A stretch of DNA of 64,000 nucleotides from Escherichia phage JSE: sequence record EU863408; one strand, 5' to 3'. Below the pieces are notes generated by a model. The model worked only from the letters and a program-made list of their open reading frames with translations, searched no databases and was not told the origin of the DNA. Within the stretch, counting starts at the first letter, position 1, and each line of letters starts with the position of its first letter. A program made the position numbers and the translations under genes. Positions 7,007 through 18,049 of this stretch are shown here, in pieces.

Positions 7007-7014
7007 TATAAATA
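7007..7014 (+). promoter_or_regulatory. T4-type late promoter motif TATAAATA upstream of gene 51
   Basis: Exact TATAAATA 21 nt before the gene 51 ATG. Confidence 0.6.
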
Positions 7015-12199: not shown

Positions 12200-13131
12200 T
12201 GTTTGATTTAAATGACTTTAACGAACAAGCCGCTAACCTTGACTTTCAGCGATCTAACTTATTCAGCGTGGCATTTGCCACCACTCCAAGTAATAAGACA
12301 CAAGCGATCCTAGAAAGTATGGGTGGTGCGGTATATGATATTATACCAAATGCATTAAATGACTATTTCGGGATTACTCGTGGTGATTATACTGACGCAT
12401 TAACAAATCTTGCTGTACAGGGTGTTAGGCGTGCTGTTGATTCATCTGGTGTCAAAAAGTATCTTTTAGGTGCAATGTCATCCCGCGTAGTTCAATCTCT
12501 TCTGGGGCAATTTGATGTTGGTACATATGCGCTTGACTGGTTCAATATGGCATATAAGACAAGCGGTCTTCTGGTGTATGCTGTTAAGGTTCCAGAAAAC
12601 AGATTGAATTATGAAATGGACCGTAACCACAATGCGCCAAACATTCGAATTACCGGACGTGATTTTGATCCGCTTGTATTGAGCTTTAGAATGGACTCTA
12701 GCGCATCAAACTATAGAGCAATGCAGGATTGGGTTAACTCAGTAGAAGACCCCGTTACAGGGCTTCGTGCGCTTCCTGTTGACGTTGAAGCAGATATTCA
12801 GGTCAACTTACATAACCGAATGGGAGTTCCTCACACGATCATGATGTTTAATGGTTGTGTTCCTGTTGGTGTGAGTGCACCGGAATTAAACTATGAAAAC
12901 AACAACGAAATCACAACATTCGATGTTACTTTCGCATATCGTTCTATGCAAACTGGTGCTGTAGGAGAGCAAGCCGCGCGAGAATGGATTGAGGATAAGG
13001 CAATAAACGCAATAACAAACACTTTCGGTAATAATTTACTTGATAGTGGGTTATCTGCTGCTGGTAATGCTTTATCGCGTCTAAATGGCGTTGGTGGGCG
13101 TGTGGTGAATACTGTCACTAACTGGTTCTGA
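12199..13131 (+). CDS. 54: baseplate tail-tube initiator gp54
   Basis: 310 aa; synteny. Confidence 0.8.
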   Translation: MFDLNDFNEQAANLDFQRSNLFSVAFATTPSNKTQAILESMGGAVYDIIPNALNDYFGITRGDYTDALTNLAVQGVRRAVDSSGVKKYLLGAMSSRVVQSLLGQFDVGTYALDWFNMAYKTSGLLVYAVKVPENRLNYEMDRNHNAPNIRITGRDFDPLVLSFRMDSSASNYRAMQDWVNSVEDPVTGLRALPVDVEADIQVNLHNRMGVPHTIMMFNGCVPVGVSAPELNYENNNEITTFDVTFAYRSMQTGAVGEQAAREWIEDKAINAITNTFGNNLLDSGLSAAGNALSRLNGVGGRVVNTVTNWF

Positions 13132-13140
13132 TAATCGAAA

Positions 13141-13168
13141 GGCGGGGATAATCCCCGCCTTTTTATTT
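13141..13168 (+). terminator. rho-independent terminator after gene 54
   Basis: GGCGGGGA-TAAT-CCCCGCC hairpin followed by TTTTTATTTT. Confidence 0.7.
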
Positions 13169-13648
13169 TGCTAAATCATTGCAATATTTTAGTGCCTTAG
13201 TTTGAAATTCTGCGCTGTTAAGTTCTTCATAACGGTCATAATCACCGTTTAATGCTGCCTTTCTTGCTTCTTGCTCTATCTGCATGTCAGACATGATAAT
13301 ACAGCGATCCCGTGCTTTCATCTTCTCAAGTTGTATAGACTCTTCTTTCTGTTTGCGCAATTCTTCTTGACGCTTCTTTTCTTCTCGTGCTTTCTCTTCC
13401 CGCGCTTCTTTGATTGCATCCTTGAACATCTGCGTTTGTGGTGCTAAACCAACTTTAACGCGATCCACGTCTCGACGTTCCATTTTAGAAATAAAGCATG
13501 ATTCGATCTGATCATCACTTGCATATGCTGCTTTACATTCACGAAGCAAGAAAACCGGATCTGATTTAGCATTCATCATAGCTTCCATGTTAGCACAACC
13601 AGTAAGAATGAATGCAGCCGCAAGACCAATCAGTTTAATCATTTTCAT
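13163..13648 (-). CDS. predicted lipoprotein (161 aa)
   Basis: Signal peptide with lipobox LTGC; Lys/Glu-rich coiled region. Confidence 0.6.
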   Translation of the reverse strand: MKMIKLIGLAAAFILTGCANMEAMMNAKSDPVFLLRECKAAYASDDQIESCFISKMERRDVDRVKVGLAPQTQMFKDAIKEAREEKAREEKKRQEELRKQKEESIQLEKMKARDRCIIMSDMQIEQEARKAALNGDYDRYEELNSAEFQTKALKYCNDLAK

Positions 13649-14469
13649 TTAGTCACCTCACCGAAAATTGTAAATTGTCTACGATTCTCATCGCCGAAAG
13701 ATTCTACTACGTCGTTTACCTTGACGCAAGTCCCGCGCGGTAAAATTACTTCACATTCGCAAGGGTTCCATGCAATGGACCCAACAACAAAACCTTTATG
13801 ATCTTTTACATCAATCACCCATGATACATTACAAGAATGTTGCATCTTTCCGGTCATTGATTCATATCGATTCTCACAATAAAGGCTAGTGCTGTTTGAT
13901 AGCCATCCTCCAAAGATGATCGGTGTCATGCTGGTCGATACAAAGTTTTTAAAGGTAAACTCCTTATCTTCAATGATGCGCTCTATTGTCTGAATGTCAA
14001 GATGTTGACCGCGATAAAGAGTACCGTTTAACTTTTCGGTTTTATCCATGACGCAATCCATCAAATCAACAATCTCTGATATCTCATCGGTCATGTCTTC
14101 TTCGCCTAAGAGAGCACCATTTACCCATTCGTATTGTTCAGACACATAATCACAGATTGCAGTATATTCTTCTGGGGTTATGTTGTTATGTTTGTAATGT
14201 TTGAATACATTATCTCCAAAGTCTTCGGAGTGTACTTCATACATCACATTAATGATTTTCTTGACAAATCCATAATCTTGTGTCTCACGCTCAAGGAAGC
14301 GGATAACCTTCACATAATCATCAAAGTTAATCTGATCGCTGATCATCTCAGTGATCATGTAACCATTAATCCCCTCAATGTCATATGTTTCGATGTAATT
14401 ATCCATACGTTCCATCATTGATTCGCGTGATTCTTCCGAAAGACGAAAATCCTGTAATTGTTTGAACAT
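13645..14469 (-). CDS. Alt-like ADP-ribosyltransferase paralog (274 aa)
   Basis: Shares with the Alt C-terminal domain the ART motifs LYRG, FKNFVSTS, IFGGW and ECEVILPRG. Confidence 0.7.
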   Translation of the reverse strand: MFKQLQDFRLSEESRESMMERMDNYIETYDIEGINGYMITEMISDQINFDDYVKVIRFLERETQDYGFVKKIINVMYEVHSEDFGDNVFKHYKHNNITPEEYTAICDYVSEQYEWVNGALLGEEDMTDEISEIVDLMDCVMDKTEKLNGTLYRGQHLDIQTIERIIEDKEFTFKNFVSTSMTPIIFGGWLSNSTSLYCENRYESMTGKMQHSCNVSWVIDVKDHKGFVVGSIAWNPCECEVILPRGTCVKVNDVVESFGDENRRQFTIFGEVTK

Positions 14470-14490
14470 TTTAAACCTCCCATATAACAG

Positions 14491-14522
14491 AAAACGGGGC
14501 TAGTATAAAACTAGTCCCCGTT
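14491..14522 (-). terminator. terminator-like hairpin between alt and the alt-like gene
   Basis: ACGGGGACTAG-loop-CTAGCCCCGT followed by a T-rich tract on the minus strand. Confidence 0.45.
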
Positions 14523-14547
14523 TGAGTCAACCATTATTTCTTAAAAA

Positions 14548-16599
14548 TTACATTTTAAATTTATCTGGCATTGCGTCTACAGATACCAGATCAGCGATAA
14601 GCTGACGTAGAGTTGCCTTATCTGCTTTCTTACGTTCGGTTTTAGCTTCGCTAATGAAGCTGGAGAAAGACAGGTCAGAAGCAGGTTTAACAACACCTTC
14701 ACGGATGAATGCATCACCGTCTGCGATCATCTCGCCAGATTCTTGTAATGCTGCCAGTTCATTTTTGTTCATAATATGTGCCTCAATGTAATAAGTTTCT
14801 TGTGAATCCGTCGATGCCGTAGCACGAGTTACCGTATCAAAGGATAACACAACACCGCGAGGAAGTAAAATCTCGCATTCTTTGTAAGCAAATGCTTTGT
14901 TACCTACTGGCAATACAGGGATGTTTTCCGCGCCAGCAATGGAGAAAGCAACATTAGCGCCACCTTCACCGCGAGAGCCAGCCATAGAATCAACACCAGC
15001 AACGGCACTAGCCACGTTTGCATTCCAGCCGCCAAAAATGTTAGGTGCAAGGGAAGTGCTCACATAGTTTTTAAAGTAAAACGCTTTTTGCTTACGTGCA
15101 GTTTCCCACATTTGCGACCGGAAGTCCATACCACGATACAGAATAGTACCCGGATCAAGTTTAACGCCATAGTTGGAGAAGGCATTATCCAGTGCATCGC
15201 ACATCTTGACCAATTCTTCTGGATCTGAGATTCCTTCAAACTCTTCCAGCTTACGGTCGGTTAGGAAGTTGTTCATATTGATGTATGCTGCATCGGCATA
15301 TTCGCTCAACACAAAACCTTCCGCGCCTGGCAGATCAAGATCAATATTTGCCATCATTTCACCCATGTTGCTAGCAATTGCTTCAAACATACCGGAAGCA
15401 ACATTACGTAGGGCATCGGTTTTAATCTGGGTGATATTACTACGCAGCATTTCAGCTTTTACATCTGCTGGCATAGACTGGTCTACTCGATCCATTGCCA
15501 GTGCGGTGATCTTGTTTTCGAATACTTCCTCGCTCATGATTTCTTTTAAGCGTTTGATTGATGCTGCGATAACTTCCGCAGACAACGGATCATATTGATC
15601 CTGAACTTTTACCAGTTCGCTTACTGCGTATTTTGCATCGGCTTCGCTTTCAAAAATAGTACGCATGAAACCATAGCGAGTGATAATATCACTTGTCCAG
15701 TCATTCAGAGAACGGGCGGTTGAACGTTCTAAGGCTTGACGATCAATCAGAGTATTAAACTGTTTCTTAGGTTCTGCTTCGGTGATATCTTCTTCCGGTT
15801 TAAGATTAATTTTTTCTGGATGATTCACATAGTCGCTGTTATAGGTCGCTTGAGTTTTCAGCATTTCTTCTTTAGTCAAACGAGATTTAGCCGCTACGCG
15901 TTGTTCCGCTTCCGCGTTTCGTTCTTCTTCTGACACAAGACTAGCCGCATACGCTTCATCTTTAGTCAGAGATTCACCAGTAGCCTTAGATACCCAGCGA
16001 TCACCTAAATCACTTTCTACTTTAGTGAACAAGGAATCATCAAGTTTAATCCCTTTAATCTTATCAATCGCCATACCGCGACGCTTGACAACAACTAAAG
16101 CGATCTTTTTGCTGGTCATTACTTCCTGCTGGAATACTTCAAACTTCGGTGTACGACGCACCAAACGCTCTATAACGCGCTTAACCAGTTCGGTCTTACC
16201 TTTCATGCGGGATACGTTAAAACGGAACATAACAGCGTCTAGTTGCGCTTTACGGGCTGTTTCCATAACCACATCAAAAGCACTTGACATAACTGCAATC
16301 GGGTTATCGCCTAGACCATTTTTAAGCTGTACAATACGACCGCTTTTGTTCATTTCGCACAGTACAACATGTGCGGTCTTGTCACCCATACGAATGATTT
16401 TAGGTGTTTTGTTGGTGAAGTTACAAAGACGGACAATCACATCTTTATCGCGTGTCTGTACTGCAAAAAGCTGTTTAGGATTCTGCTTAGGCTTTAAGCA
16501 CTGTACCGGGGCAATACTACCAAAGTTTTCTTCCTCTTCCGTCAACAGCCATTTCTCGAAAGATTCAATCATTAGATCGTCGATTTCTAAGTTAAACAT
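14548..16599 (-). CDS. alt: Alt ADP-ribosyltransferase (packaged RNA polymerase-modifying enzyme)
   Basis: 683 aa; C-terminal ART motifs YRG, YVSTS, ECEILLPRG; size and position as T4 alt. Confidence 0.85.
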   Translation of the reverse strand: MFNLEIDDLMIESFEKWLLTEEEENFGSIAPVQCLKPKQNPKQLFAVQTRDKDVIVRLCNFTNKTPKIIRMGDKTAHVVLCEMNKSGRIVQLKNGLGDNPIAVMSSAFDVVMETARKAQLDAVMFRFNVSRMKGKTELVKRVIERLVRRTPKFEVFQQEVMTSKKIALVVVKRRGMAIDKIKGIKLDDSLFTKVESDLGDRWVSKATGESLTKDEAYAASLVSEEERNAEAEQRVAAKSRLTKEEMLKTQATYNSDYVNHPEKINLKPEEDITEAEPKKQFNTLIDRQALERSTARSLNDWTSDIITRYGFMRTIFESEADAKYAVSELVKVQDQYDPLSAEVIAASIKRLKEIMSEEVFENKITALAMDRVDQSMPADVKAEMLRSNITQIKTDALRNVASGMFEAIASNMGEMMANIDLDLPGAEGFVLSEYADAAYINMNNFLTDRKLEEFEGISDPEELVKMCDALDNAFSNYGVKLDPGTILYRGMDFRSQMWETARKQKAFYFKNYVSTSLAPNIFGGWNANVASAVAGVDSMAGSRGEGGANVAFSIAGAENIPVLPVGNKAFAYKECEILLPRGVVLSFDTVTRATASTDSQETYYIEAHIMNKNELAALQESGEMIADGDAFIREGVVKPASDLSFSSFISEAKTERKKADKATLRQLIADLVSVDAMPDKFKM

Positions 16600-16644
16600 T
16601 TTATATCCTCTAGTTGATAACCTATAAACCTATATTTATGAAAA

Positions 16645-16668
16645 CGGGGCTTAACGCCCCTTTTTATT
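16645..16668. terminator. terminator-like hairpin
   Basis: GGGGC-TTAAC-GCCCC followed by TTTTTATT. Confidence 0.45.
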
Positions 16669-16879
16669 ATAATGCACCATCGAGCAATTGCTCTAAGGTG
16701 TATCCTGAATAGTCTTTTTCAATCAGGATATATTTTCCTACTCGTTTAATACAACCGCGCATTTCAACGTATTCTGCGTAGTTGATGGTACGAGTTGTTC
16801 CATCTTCCAGTAATGCAGTACCGATTTCGTTAATGCGGTCATAAGTTACGTCGGTAATGATGATTTCGATGTTAGCCAT
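16667..16879 (-). CDS. hypothetical protein (70 aa)
   Basis: ORF with GGAGTA RBS and PeSL-type promoter upstream. Confidence 0.45.
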   Translation of the reverse strand: MANIEIIITDVTYDRINEIGTALLEDGTTRTINYAEYVEMRGCIKRVGKYILIEKDYSGYTLEQLLDGAL

Positions 16880-16912: not shown

Positions 16913-16944
16913 TGTATTATGATATACACCCTCTGTTATGTCAA
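16913..16944 (-). promoter_or_regulatory. PeSL-type early promoter (variant)
   Basis: TTGACA, 17-nt spacer, CATAAT; inverted repeat GGGTGTAT..ATACACCC. Confidence 0.45.
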
Positions 16945-17162: not shown

Positions 17163-17191
17163 ATTATAGGGGATCGATGATCCCCTGTCAA
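17163..17191 (-). promoter_or_regulatory. PeSL-type early promoter with palindromic spacer
   Basis: TTGACA, spacer GGGGATCATCGATCCCC, TATAAT. Confidence 0.6.
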
Positions 17192-17199
17192 CAACTTTT

Positions 17200-17718
17200 T
17201 TAGTTATTTTTTAATTGCTCATCTTGCAATAGGGCAATCACATGCTGGCGATGTTCTTCCGATTGAGGCACACCGAAAAAGTTTGTTTTGTAGAAATACT
17301 CTAATCGGTCTTCTCGTGTGCTCTCTTCCATCATGATCGCGGGTAGTCCGAGATTTCGGAAACGTCGCTTTTCTGCTGGCGTAAAATCACTGTAATACAA
17401 CATAGAATCATCATTACCAGCAATGCTAAACTCATCCTTCATAAAGGAGAATATTGCGTTTAAACGCTGTTTACCGTCCACGATTTCGATCTCATAGCGA
17501 GAGCCATCATCAATCTTAGCCATTGCGATAGCACCAACCGGAAAATCATTAATCAGGTTTTCGATAAACATACGTTTGTTTTCTGTGTCCCATACTAAAG
17601 GACGCTGATAATCTGGGTTCATGTTGATATAGCCATCTTCTAACCATGCATCATAAACAGAGATGACAAAGTTTTTAGTATTGGTATAGTAACGGCGTTT
17701 AGGCGTTAAACGGTTCAT
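17200..17718 (-). CDS. DUF262 (ParB-like NTPase) domain protein
   Basis: Motifs PDYQRPLVW, FPVG, IVDGKQRL typical of DUF262; start taken at MNRLT with GGAGAC RBS. Confidence 0.6.
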   Translation of the reverse strand: MNRLTPKRRYYTNTKNFVISVYDAWLEDGYINMNPDYQRPLVWDTENKRMFIENLINDFPVGAIAMAKIDDGSRYEIEIVDGKQRLNAIFSFMKDEFSIAGNDDSMLYYSDFTPAEKRRFRNLGLPAIMMEESTREDRLEYFYKTNFFGVPQSEEHRQHVIALLQDEQLKNN

Positions 17719-17719
17719 G

Positions 17720-18049
17720 TTATAGTCTCCTGAATGGATCATCACGTAAATCAATATCTTTTAAGAACTCATCCCATGAATGCCGGATATTGTTCTTAAT
17801 TCTCCAGATAAGCGCAGGGATTGAACGCTCTCCCATCTGGAAGTAAGGATCATATGATCCGTATGCCCAATATGCTACTACAATTCCACAATCAGCGCAA
17901 TAGTATTCTATTTCACTTGCTGGCGACCAAAGTCCATCAATATGATCGGTGATCTTGCTTTCGATGTTATGGCTATGACAATCAGGGCAACGGATGCAAT
18001 GACCTTGTTTATCGTAATTTGACGTTAGCGAATACTTAAACAATCTCAT
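17720..18049 (-). CDS. zinc-ribbon protein (109 aa)
   Basis: CxxC..H and CxxC pairs (CIRCPDCHSH, CADCG); translationally coupled to neighbours. Confidence 0.5.
   Translation of the reverse strand: MRLFKYSLTSNYDKQGHCIRCPDCHSHNIESKITDHIDGLWSPASEIEYYCADCGIVVAYWAYGSYDPYFQMGERSIPALIWRIKNNIRHSWDEFLKDIDLRDDPFRRL

Follow-up and report, generated by a model that had tools for sequence, protein, structure and literature searches.

A conserved copy of the Alt catalytic module next to alt in Escherichia phage JSE: a candidate early, stand-alone ADP-ribosyltransferase

The window analysed here, a stretch of 64,000 nt from the RB49-like Escherichia phage JSE (record EU863408), carries on its minus strand a full-length alt gene, followed by a gene for a shorter Alt-family ADP-ribosyltransferase (short ART) and by a lipoprotein gene that converges on gene 54. 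The features of this locus, in the direction of transcription, are:

16633..16660, minus strand: region upstream of alt, with a terminator hairpin (GGGGCGTTAAGCCCC, 16660..16646) and then a late-promoter-like motif (CATAAATA, 16640..16633), ~30 nt before the alt ATG
14548..16599, minus strand: alt, full-length Alt homologue of 683 aa (phrog_802, E 1.6e-179; alt of RB49 in RefSeq)
14502..14530, minus strand: sigma-70-type early promoter of a PeSL, with -35 TTGACT (14530..14525), 17-nt spacer, -10 TATACT (14507..14502) and an AT-rich stretch upstream
14486..14523, minus strand: intrinsic-terminator hairpin and U-tract (stem 14523..14492), overlapping the promoter spacer and -10 box
14476..14481, minus strand: Shine-Dalgarno sequence GGGAGG, 6 nt 5' of the ATG at 14469, kept as GGGAG or GGAG in the aligned loci
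13645..14469, minus strand: short ART coding sequence, 274 aa, the same as RB49p183/ORF183c, with ATG start and TGA stop inside the range
14013..14011, 13938..13936, 13758..13756 and 13752..13750, minus strand: short ART catalytic codons R153, S178, E238 and E240, respectively
13163..13648, minus strand: lipoprotein gene, 161 aa, with a signal peptide ending in the lipobox LTGC (phrog_16112)
13137..13163, no strand assigned: bidirectional terminator hairpin with 12 pairs (7 G-C), separating the lipoprotein gene from gene 54, which converges on it

In line with the initial annotation, the open reading frame list places the 274-aa gene directly downstream of alt, at a distance of 78 nt. It is a real, conserved gene, and it is already known. 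The protein shows 98.9% amino acid identity to RB49p183/ORF183c (NP_891754, PHROG 15144), with 3 non-synonymous and 14 synonymous differences between the genes, and phrog_15144 matches it over its full length. ORF183c is the same gene in the same slot between alt and ORF182c/gene 54, and differs by strain-level substitutions only. RefSeq labels it 'ADP-ribosyltransferase; similar to C-terminal part of T4 Alt protein', and it was named as a paralogous duplication of alt (Nolan et al., 2006). The gene has been annotated and published since 2003–2006, with the annotation dating back to deposition of the RB49 genome. Our searches of the literature found no expression, virion-proteome or enzymatic data for RB49p183 or short ART, and gave nothing usable on virion proteomics or transcriptomics of RB49-like phages; alt and mod are absent from the text of Petrov (2010).

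The four catalytic motifs that the initial annotation had described as shared with Alt were each located in short ART, namely LYRG (residues 151–154), FKNFVSTS (173–180), IFGGW (185–189) and ECEVILPRG (238–246), and have close counterparts in the 683-aa Alt (LYRG, FKNYVSTS, IFGGW and ECEILLPRG). Alignment of the two proteins by BLASTP gave 37% identity over 109 aa (E 9e-17), which is far past chance; the catalytic Arg and Glu are both retained and the homology is clear. Residues 82–266 match Pfam family PF03496, scoring 58.2 bits where the gathering threshold is 23.4 (E 9e-16), phrog_802 matches at E 2.9e-45, and all non-self matches of short ART are Alt-like proteins. Across 66 aligned sequences, R153 of LYRG, S178-T179-S180 and E238-C-E240 vary little or not at all, and in the short ART family the catalytic residues are kept down to 41% identity.

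A PDB sequence search yielded marginal matches only, with no Alt homologue among them. The match to the Arg-specific ADP-ribosyltransferase Tre1 (E 0.045) nevertheless brings the YRG, STS and ExE motifs of the two proteins into line. E240 aligns with the second Glu of the EME motif of T4 Alt. This is the T4 residue changed in E577A, a substitution that abolishes T4 Alt activity (PMC11404850), and we counted it in favour of E240 as the catalytic Glu. The AlphaFold2 model of short ART is compact and confident (pLDDT 92, pTM 0.89). Foldseek searches of the PDB matched this model to Vis (E 4.5e-11) and C3bot2 (E 5e-10) over ~210–220 aligned columns, and the E values across Vis, C3 and iota toxin ranged from 1e-9 to 5e-11; the modelled fold is C3/Vis-like, with N-terminal helices and a split beta-sandwich. 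Together, the invariant Arg, STS and ExE residues, this fold and a dN/dS of 0.05 bear out that short ART is a diverged Alt paralogue carrying the ART catalytic motifs. Judged by the same evidence, the protein is almost certainly an active ADP-ribosyltransferase. Its ARTT loop differs from that of Alt, which makes a different substrate range plausible.

The N-terminal half had been considered unrelated to Alt, which holds for only part of it. Residues 1–96 alone matched no Alt family, and their profile gave no signal against the Alt profile (hhalign probability 0.15), so that homology of the extreme N-terminus is argued from structure alone. Yet residues ~97–150 are homologous to Alt, the PF03496 match starts at residue 82, and residues 1–150 match the Alt PHROG (E 5e-10), with residues 8–148 aligned to profile positions 330–469. 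Sequence similarity is thus undetectable only for the first ~50–95 residues, and the short ART model superposes on predicted full-length Alt models with TM 0.75–0.81 over ~300 columns. Contrary to the earlier suggestion of a different targeting domain, the region consists mostly of a helical lobe that also precedes the Alt catalytic core. As far as sequence and model can tell, the N-terminal part of short ART is no new targeting domain.

In the model of the alt product, an alpha/beta domain at the N-terminus is followed by a helical region, then by the ART core and finally by a C-terminal tail. In precomputed Pfam assignments, Alts of 600–700 aa have PF26846 and PF03496, including the 683-aa equivalents of loci L016 and L017 and the more diverged 668-aa Alt of L009 and L010, while members of the short family have PF03496 only. 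The first residue of short ART corresponds to Alt residue ~320. At the other end the alignment stops ~8 residues past the last beta-strand, and the tail that is conserved in Alts and in proteins P0007 and P0008 (..YDGD.L.E.GE.. ..P.KF..) is missing. Short ART is the Alt catalytic module without the ~320-residue N-terminal part and without the C-terminal tail; by sequence comparison, the PF26846 domain and the tail appear lost and not swapped for something else.

The best explanation of its origin is that the C-terminal module of Alt was copied long ago and that the copy has since diverged. All 57 phage records with this region are Krischvirus-like coliphages or Shigella phages, all carry short ART, and the reading frame is intact in each (57/57). 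The dN/dS was 0.05 overall (0.09 for residues 1–96, 0.04 for residues 97–274) and 0.03 for Alt, and the substitution pattern indicates strong purifying selection. The Krischvirus short form is a small clade of its own: of 1.84 billion representatives, four clusters match at E<1e-30, and one of these is a 76-residue N-terminal fragment of short ART itself. A recent intragenomic duplication was also considered, and was rejected since identity of the catalytic domain to the neighbouring Alt is no more than 28%, and all other Alts are just as distant.

Between alt and short ART, the promoter scan matched 10 of 12 hexamer positions at 14502..14530 on the minus strand. An RB49 early promoter, Pe:112388, was predicted at the same site with a weak score of 9.3, against 30–39 for strong RB49 early promoters in the same model (Nolan et al., 2006). 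The hairpin at 14486..14523 has a predicted RNA fold of −18.9 kcal/mol (z −6.1); its counterparts in L009 and L011 fold with −17.8 and −19.7 kcal/mol. The JSE hairpin should terminate transcription from alt before the short ART gene is reached. The arrangement TTGACW-17-TATRMT with embedded hairpin and TTTTCT is kept in six diverged loci with proteins of 41–98% identity, and the stem shows compensatory changes across them. The order upstream of short ART is TAA, AT-rich stretch, TTGACT-17-TATACT, hairpin over the -10 box, GGGAGG and ATG. This layout is that of a PeSL, defined as an AT-rich stretch near the upstream stop, sigma-70-like -35 and -10 boxes, a stable stem-loop that lies between the boxes or overlaps them, a Shine-Dalgarno sequence and a start codon (Arbiol et al., 2010; PMC2839356). 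Promoter and terminator activities have been demonstrated experimentally for other PeSLs of RB49 and phi1 (PMC2839356).

At its 3' end, the short ART stop codon overlaps the ATG of the lipoprotein gene (ATGA), and therefore both genes form one operon. Lipoprotein homologues lie 3' of short ART in L009, L011, L013, L014, L016 and L017, and the coupling holds in every locus that reaches beyond the short ART stop codon. A terminator equivalent to the one before gene 54 was predicted in RB49 (Nolan et al., 2006, supplementary file 6). Homologue searches with the lipoprotein found only phage proteins without a functional name, all in phage-sized contigs, and NCBIfam and PADLOC scans of both proteins gave nothing meaningful. 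We also considered the lipoprotein as T4 Alt.-3, which occupies the same slot, and rejected this because the proteins are unrelated.

The initial annotation had raised the possibility of a second packaged host-modifying enzyme. In this scenario, short ART would be targeted to the prohead core, cut by gp21 behind LSE12 and, like Alt, injected together with the phage DNA, and would act at once on host proteins other than those modified by Alt. T4 alt is a late gene and its product is packaged (PMC9697503; PMC9958956). In JSE alt is preceded by a hairpin and a motif of the form [C/A]ATAAATA (late-type ATAAATA), and this layout recurs in L009 (AATAAATA) and L016 (CATAAATA), even though no late promoter was predicted at the site by Nolan et al. 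(2006). Short ART has a strong terminator between it and alt and its own sigma-70 promoter, conserved in six loci, and no late-promoter motif was found for it (WATAAATA is absent between positions 7014 and 28013), so the proposal is not supported. A late promoter predicted inside the ORF, Pl:112065 (Nolan et al., 2006), was not reproduced: the sequence there is TACAAACA, and TATAAATA is absent. Moreover, short ART is without both regions specific to Alt, the PF26846 domain and the conserved tail, and is co-transcribed with an exported lipoprotein and not with head genes. What speaks for packaging is the location beside alt, which in T2/RB51-type phages is taken by the full-length Alt paralogue alt.-2, and the argument made in surveys that many myovirus ARTs are head-delivered (PMC9503650). 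The protein also has a flexible N-terminus (pLDDT 69 for residues 1–10) followed by L-S-E at residues 10–12, and (L/I)xE occurs near the N-terminus in most members of the short family. The cleavage rule of the gp21 prohead protease in T4 is (L/I)xE. L-S-E fits this rule, and RB49 gp23 has IAE|A and RB49 gp24 has LRE at the positions where T4 gp23 and gp24 are cleaved. However, a motif of three residues such as (L/I)xE turns up often in Glu-rich helices. The N-terminus MFKQLQDFRLSE may loosely resemble MKTYQEFIAE, the capsid-targeting sequence of T4 IPII/IPIII. When all RB49 ORFs were scanned with a regex for an N-terminus like that capsid-targeting sequence, short ART was the sole match; no other ORF begins with a comparable motif, and therefore this lead was not strengthened. 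We consider packaging unlikely. Early synthesis alone would not bar later incorporation of short ART into proheads.

Alternatively, the gene might be a decaying, non-catalytic remnant of an alt duplication without an enzymatic role, like T4 alt.-1/alt.-2. T4 keeps only broken N-terminal remnants of its duplicated alt (RefSeq notes), and the Krischvirus copy is truncated relative to Alt as well. This reading is disfavoured, and seems to us very improbable, given a reading frame intact in all 57 records, a dN/dS similar to that of Alt, catalytic residues that are all invariant down to 41% identity, a compact and confident model, and a conserved promoter and ribosome-binding site of its own. Another possibility is that ART and lipoprotein form a two-gene cassette directed against other phages or host defences, and not at general reprogramming of transcription or translation. 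For instance, the ART could inactivate a host toxin or a defence protein, and the lipoprotein could serve superinfection exclusion at the envelope. In favour of this, the two genes are coupled in every locus extending past the ART stop. A PeSL on one side and a terminator on the other delimit the cassette, and it has been proposed that phages shuffle units of this kind among themselves, and ORF182 is among the ORFs associated with islands, plasmids or integrons (PMC2839356). In addition, T4 Alt is reported to regulate MazF (Alawneh et al., 2016), the kind of toxin inactivation envisaged here. On the other hand, no match of either protein in PADLOC, NCBIfam or Pfam points to such a role, and the lipoprotein homologues, confined to phage-sized contigs, have no functional name. 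The idea also overlaps our preferred explanation, with the same enzyme and timing and only the target differing. We regard it as rather improbable.

The explanation that we favour, as somewhat better than an even bet, is that short ART is a stand-alone, catalytically competent, Arg-specific (ExE-type) mono-ADP-ribosyltransferase of the Alt/C3-VIP2 (R-S-E) lineage, insulated by a PeSL, made early and not packaged. It would correspond to Alt residues ~320–610, that is, the helical lobe and the beta-sandwich NAD-binding core. The PeSL cassette would insulate it from alt, with alt transcripts ending at the hairpin and the embedded sigma-70 promoter initiating another one within the 3' arm of the stem. 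This second transcript would span short ART and the translationally coupled lipoprotein gene and stop at the terminator before gene 54. At an early stage of infection, host RNA polymerase could thus transcribe short ART from the incoming genome, and the enzyme would modify host proteins in the cytoplasm. Its role would then resemble the use of ModA and ModB by T4 after packaged Alt has acted. RB49 has a single modB-like gene, elsewhere in its genome, and we found no second Mod gene in RB49. Perhaps Krischviruses turned a copy of the Alt module into an early, unpackaged enzyme in the niche of T4 ModA, an independent route to two-step ADP-ribosylation by an injected and then an early-synthesised enzyme. 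This is a speculative extension to which we assign a low likelihood; if true, the obligatory coupling to the lipoprotein would hint at a cassette for cytoplasmic and envelope takeover or exclusion, moved by PeSL recombination.

Phage ADP-ribosyltransferases are central to host takeover, and T4 has three of them (Alt, ModA and ModB). They are still being mined, the RNAylation activity of ModB being a recent example. Our analysis adds that the N-terminal part of short ART is probably not a new targeting domain, and that its regulatory context, the PeSL and the lipoprotein operon, suggests early synthesis rather than packaging. A compact 274-aa enzyme is present in all 57 records, many of them from phages isolated for therapeutic use, and therefore offers a handle on an Alt catalytic module that would not be delivered from the capsid.

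Short ART belongs to the same catalytic subfamily as T4 Alt, the packaged NAD+:arginine ADP-ribosyltransferase that modifies Arg265 of RNA polymerase alpha, with YRG, STS and ExE and an equivalent helical lobe before the catalytic core, as the comparison with predicted Alt models illustrates. It differs from T4 Alt in a catalytic-domain identity of only 28–37%, in the missing ~320-residue N-terminal part and ~75-residue C-terminal tail, and in an apparent early sigma-70 promoter where Alt has a late one. A second Alt-like gene directly 3' of alt and before gene 54 is also found as alt.-2 in Tequatroviruses of the T2/RB51/T6 type, a paralogue that matches 444 phage records. The same slot holds the alt.-1/alt.-2 remnants of T4 and the duplicated or split alt of Acinetobacter phage ZZ1, Ac42, JS98, Bp7 and 44RR. 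The T2-type alt.-2 has the full length of 685 aa, T4 has N-terminal fragments only, and the Krischvirus form is the catalytic module only; CDS211 of ZZ1, at 463 aa a C-terminal 'split' Alt, has a predicted structure that matches short ART with TM 0.75.

ModA and ModB of T4 are early, small (~200 aa) stand-alone ARTs, as short ART with its apparent early promoter may be, and Krischviruses have one Mod gene where T4 has two. However, BLASTP found no significant similarity of short ART to ModA or ModB (E 1.6–8); it belongs to the Alt/VIP2 family and not to the Mod family, so that the likeness would be one of function only. C3 exoenzyme, Vis, iota-toxin Ia and Tre1 share the fold and active-site motifs, and the ExE ARTT motif of short ART is that of the arginine-specific R-S-E members. 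Identity to these proteins is 15–20%; short ART is longer by ~50 residues at the N-terminus and is a phage enzyme, presumably intracellular, whereas they are secreted bacterial toxins.

The short ADP-ribosyltransferase (ART) gene follows alt on the minus strand after a gap of 78 nt. The surrounding region (13000-16700) shares 98.4–98.9% identity with RB49, phi1 and 55 further Krischvirus genomes, and the whole window is collinear with RB49 97842-164018. Plus-strand T4-type baseplate genes 29, 48 and 54 converge on the minus-strand block containing alt. The central features are:

14548..16599, minus strand: alt, encoding a 683-aa Alt homologue (phrog_802, E 1.6e-179)
13645..14469, minus strand: short ART ORF, 274 codons, the range including the TGA stop
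13163..13648, minus strand: lipoprotein gene, 161 aa, with a signal peptide ending LTGC (phrog_16112)

The ORF is present as the initial annotation described it, including the TGA stop within its range, and the proposed paralogy with Alt is borne out. All four catalytic motifs occur in short ART with near-identical counterparts in the neighbouring Alt, and BLASTP aligns 109 residues of the two proteins at 37% identity (E 9e-17). Residues 82-266 match PF03496, the ADP-ribosyltransferase exoenzyme family, with 58.2 bits against a threshold of 23.4, while phrog_15144 'ADP-ribosyltransferase' spans the protein end to end (654 bits). Short ART is 98.9% identical to RB49p183, which RefSeq names 'ADP-ribosyltransferase' and describes as 'similar to C-terminal part of T4 Alt protein'. 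Nolan et al. (2006; PMC1524935) grouped RB49ORF183c with 44RRORF188c and T4 alt.-1/alt.-2 as apparent paralogous duplications of alt. The gene is already annotated and published, and the main new information of our analysis is its regulatory context.

The gap between alt and the short ORF consists, in order, of TAA, an AT-rich stretch, TTGACT, a 17-nt spacer, TATACT, GGGAGG and ATG. A hairpin (−18.9 kcal/mol, z −6.1) covers both spacer and −10 box, with UUUUCU after it. By its sequence, this is the PeSL ('promoter-early stem-loop') architecture described for RB49 and phi1, for which reporters showed promoter and terminator activity of other copies (PMC2839356). A weak early promoter was independently predicted at exactly the same place (Pe:112388, score 9.3; Nolan et al., 2006). 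Among metagenomic sequences, we recovered five diverged relatives with short-ART proteins 41–63% identical to that of JSE. All five keep TTGAC(A/T)-17-TAT(A/G)(C/A)T, and all five keep the hairpin with compensatory changes (paired stem segments include CTAG/CTAG, TCAG/CTGA, ACAG/CTGT and GGAG/CTCC). A transcript from the PeSL promoter would start within the 3' stem arm and thereby escape termination, whereas alt transcripts carry the entire hairpin and should terminate there. In one relative, the gene call of the short-ART protein P0021 (L011 1530..2345) begins inside the PeSL hairpin (ATGATGTCTCCG...). Alignment places its true start at the ATG after GGGAGG, ~30 nt downstream, and therefore the database entry has a spurious N-terminal extension.

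Upstream of alt itself, a terminator hairpin is followed by CATAAATA ~30 nt before the ATG; the related loci L009 and L016 carry AATAAATA and CATAAATA, respectively. Judged from its sequence this is a late-type motif, although it was not called by Nolan's model. In T4, alt is a late gene, whose product resides in the prohead core at ~40 copies and has its N-terminus trimmed by gp21 (PMC9697503, PMC9958956). Around the short ORF, no W-ATAAATA occurs anywhere nearby. The top-scoring late promoter of RB49 in Nolan et al. (2006), Pl:112065 with a score of 15.9, falls within the short ORF. The corresponding site (RB49 112023-112065, window ~14179..14221, minus strand) contains no TATAAATA, its closest match being TACAAACA. 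Either a wrong coordinate or an artefact of the model lies behind this call.

The initial annotation also assigned short ART an unrelated N-terminal half with a different targeting domain. At the sequence level this holds for the first part only: residues 1-96 searched alone matched no Alt family, and hhalign of their seven-sequence profile against a 40-sequence Alt profile was negative. However, residues 1-150 match the Alt PHROG (E 4.8e-10; residues 8-148 on profile positions 330-469), and in an exhaustive phmmer search alignments to several Alts begin at residues 18-40 of the query and ~306-380 of Alt. The AlphaFold2 model of short ART is confident and compact (pLDDT 92, pTM 0.89), with six helices (12-28, 36-41, 49-63, 66-91, 99-120, 128-143) packed on a beta core. 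In the PDB, Vis, C3 and iota-type ARTs align with it over ~210-220 columns (TM ~0.5, lowest E 4.5e-11), which indicates a canonical ART fold from residue ~50 on. Among predicted viral structures, it superposes over ~300 columns on the full-length Alt of Shigella phage SP18 (TM 0.81) and on the 'split' Alt of ZZ1 (TM 0.75). The model of the window Alt repeats this series of helices (319-334 through 460-477) ahead of its LYRG strand at 487; an alpha/beta domain (~residues 30-240) and a disordered linker precede them, and a C-terminal tail comes after the core. By the shared helix run and the superpositions, short ART corresponds roughly to Alt residues 320-610. It lacks the N-terminal PF26846 domain and the conserved C-terminal tail of Alt. 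A new targeting domain is not supported, as its N-terminal helices match those of the Alt model; the two Alt regions were lost and nothing was taken up in their place.

An ARTT motif of the ExE form is seen in arginine-specific ARTs (C3/iota family), a reading supported for short ART by its alignment to arginine-specific Tre1. Loss of the catalytic Arg or Glu is not seen: R153, S178-T-S180 and E238-x-E240 show no or almost no variation among 66 aligned family members, and the short subfamily keeps them even where identity falls to 41%. E240 pairs with the second Glu of the T4 Alt EME motif, where E577A (authors' numbering) abolishes activity (PMC11404850). The ORF is intact in all 57 Krischvirus records. 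Measured against a relative with ~25% synonymous divergence, its dN/dS is 0.05 overall, similar to that of Alt (0.03); residues 1-96 give 0.09 and the remaining residues 0.04. The gene is thus real, under strong constraint and very probably functional. Its ARTT loop and that of Alt are not alike in sequence (SIAWNPCECE versus KAFAYKECE), which makes a different substrate range plausible.

The stop of short ART overlaps the start of the lipoprotein gene (ATGA). This gene follows short ART in six of six related loci extending past the ART stop (L012 ends before it), and appears translationally coupled in every one. Ahead of gene 54, a bidirectional terminator closes the pair. The lipoprotein has a Lys/Glu-rich coiled segment and conserved Cys residues, with no family assignment beyond phrog_16112, and its homologues were found in phage-sized contigs only. 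Arbiol et al. (2010; PMC2839356) count ORF182 with the ORFs linked to islands, plasmids or integrons. Any role in the envelope or in superinfection exclusion is guesswork. Further features lie upstream of alt:

16916..16944, minus strand: PeSL, TTGACA-17-CATAAT (11/12), G/C-rich hairpin between/over the boxes
17163..17191, minus strand: PeSL, TTGACA-17-TATAAT (12/12), G/C-rich hairpin between/over the boxes
17200..17754, minus strand: 184-aa ORF, whose L016/L017 equivalents carry PF03235 (GmrSD_N / DUF262)

The PeSLs at 17163..17191 and 16916..16944 precede small ORFs of 59 and 70 aa. The 184-aa ORF, preceded by a perfect-consensus PeSL promoter, encodes as a separate phage protein the N-terminal domain known from a type IV restriction enzyme family, and its product could be a decoy or anti-restriction factor.

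We propose that short ART is an early-transcribed, cytoplasmic, arginine-specific mono-ADP-ribosyltransferase, which would be made from the incoming genome and act after the injected Alt. Alternatively, short ART might itself be packaged in the head, as the initial annotation considered possible. The prohead protease cleaves after (L/I)xE, and the first 11 residues of short ART are flexible and followed by L-S-E, which fits this rule. A similar motif recurs near the N-terminus in most family members, and early synthesis is not strictly incompatible with later packaging. RB49 gp23 and gp24 carry IAE|A and LRE, presumably at the positions of T4 gp23 and gp24 cleavage. Yet, L-S-E is weak evidence, as a three-residue motif in a Glu-rich sequence, and none of the remaining RB49 ORFs starts with a similar capsid-targeting-like motif. 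Packaging is probably wrong, given the gene's own predicted early promoter, the lack of a nearby late motif and a hairpin that should stop alt transcripts. The one testable idea of some value is that packaged Alt and an early-made, lipoprotein-coupled, Alt-derived enzyme divide the labour in time. RB49 has three ART genes: alt, the short ART gene and one modB-like gene. Since T4 has two Mod genes (ModA, ModB), a ModA-like role for short ART is conceivable but purely speculative; in sequence it resembles neither of them.

The short form is a small clade: only four clusters among 1.84 billion representatives match it at E<1e-30, one of them a 76-residue N-terminal fragment of the same protein, and among cultured phages it is limited to Krischvirus. 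The duplication is old, because the catalytic domain is just 28% identical to that of the neighbouring Alt and 30–37% to other Alts. A second Alt-like gene between alt and gene 54 is common among T4-like phages. RB51 and T2-type phages have a full-length 685-aa alt.-2 immediately after alt, a type of protein that matches 444 phage records. In Acinetobacter phage ZZ1, alt is duplicated and split, and duplications are reported in Ac42, JS98 and Bp7 too (PMC4177764). In T4, N-terminal remnants alone survive (alt.-1/alt.-2, RefSeq notes; T4 122742-125502, our locus L015), whereas Krischvirus retained the catalytic module alone. Compared across lineages (T4, L015, versus RB51, L003), the slot holds complementary leftovers of an alt duplication.
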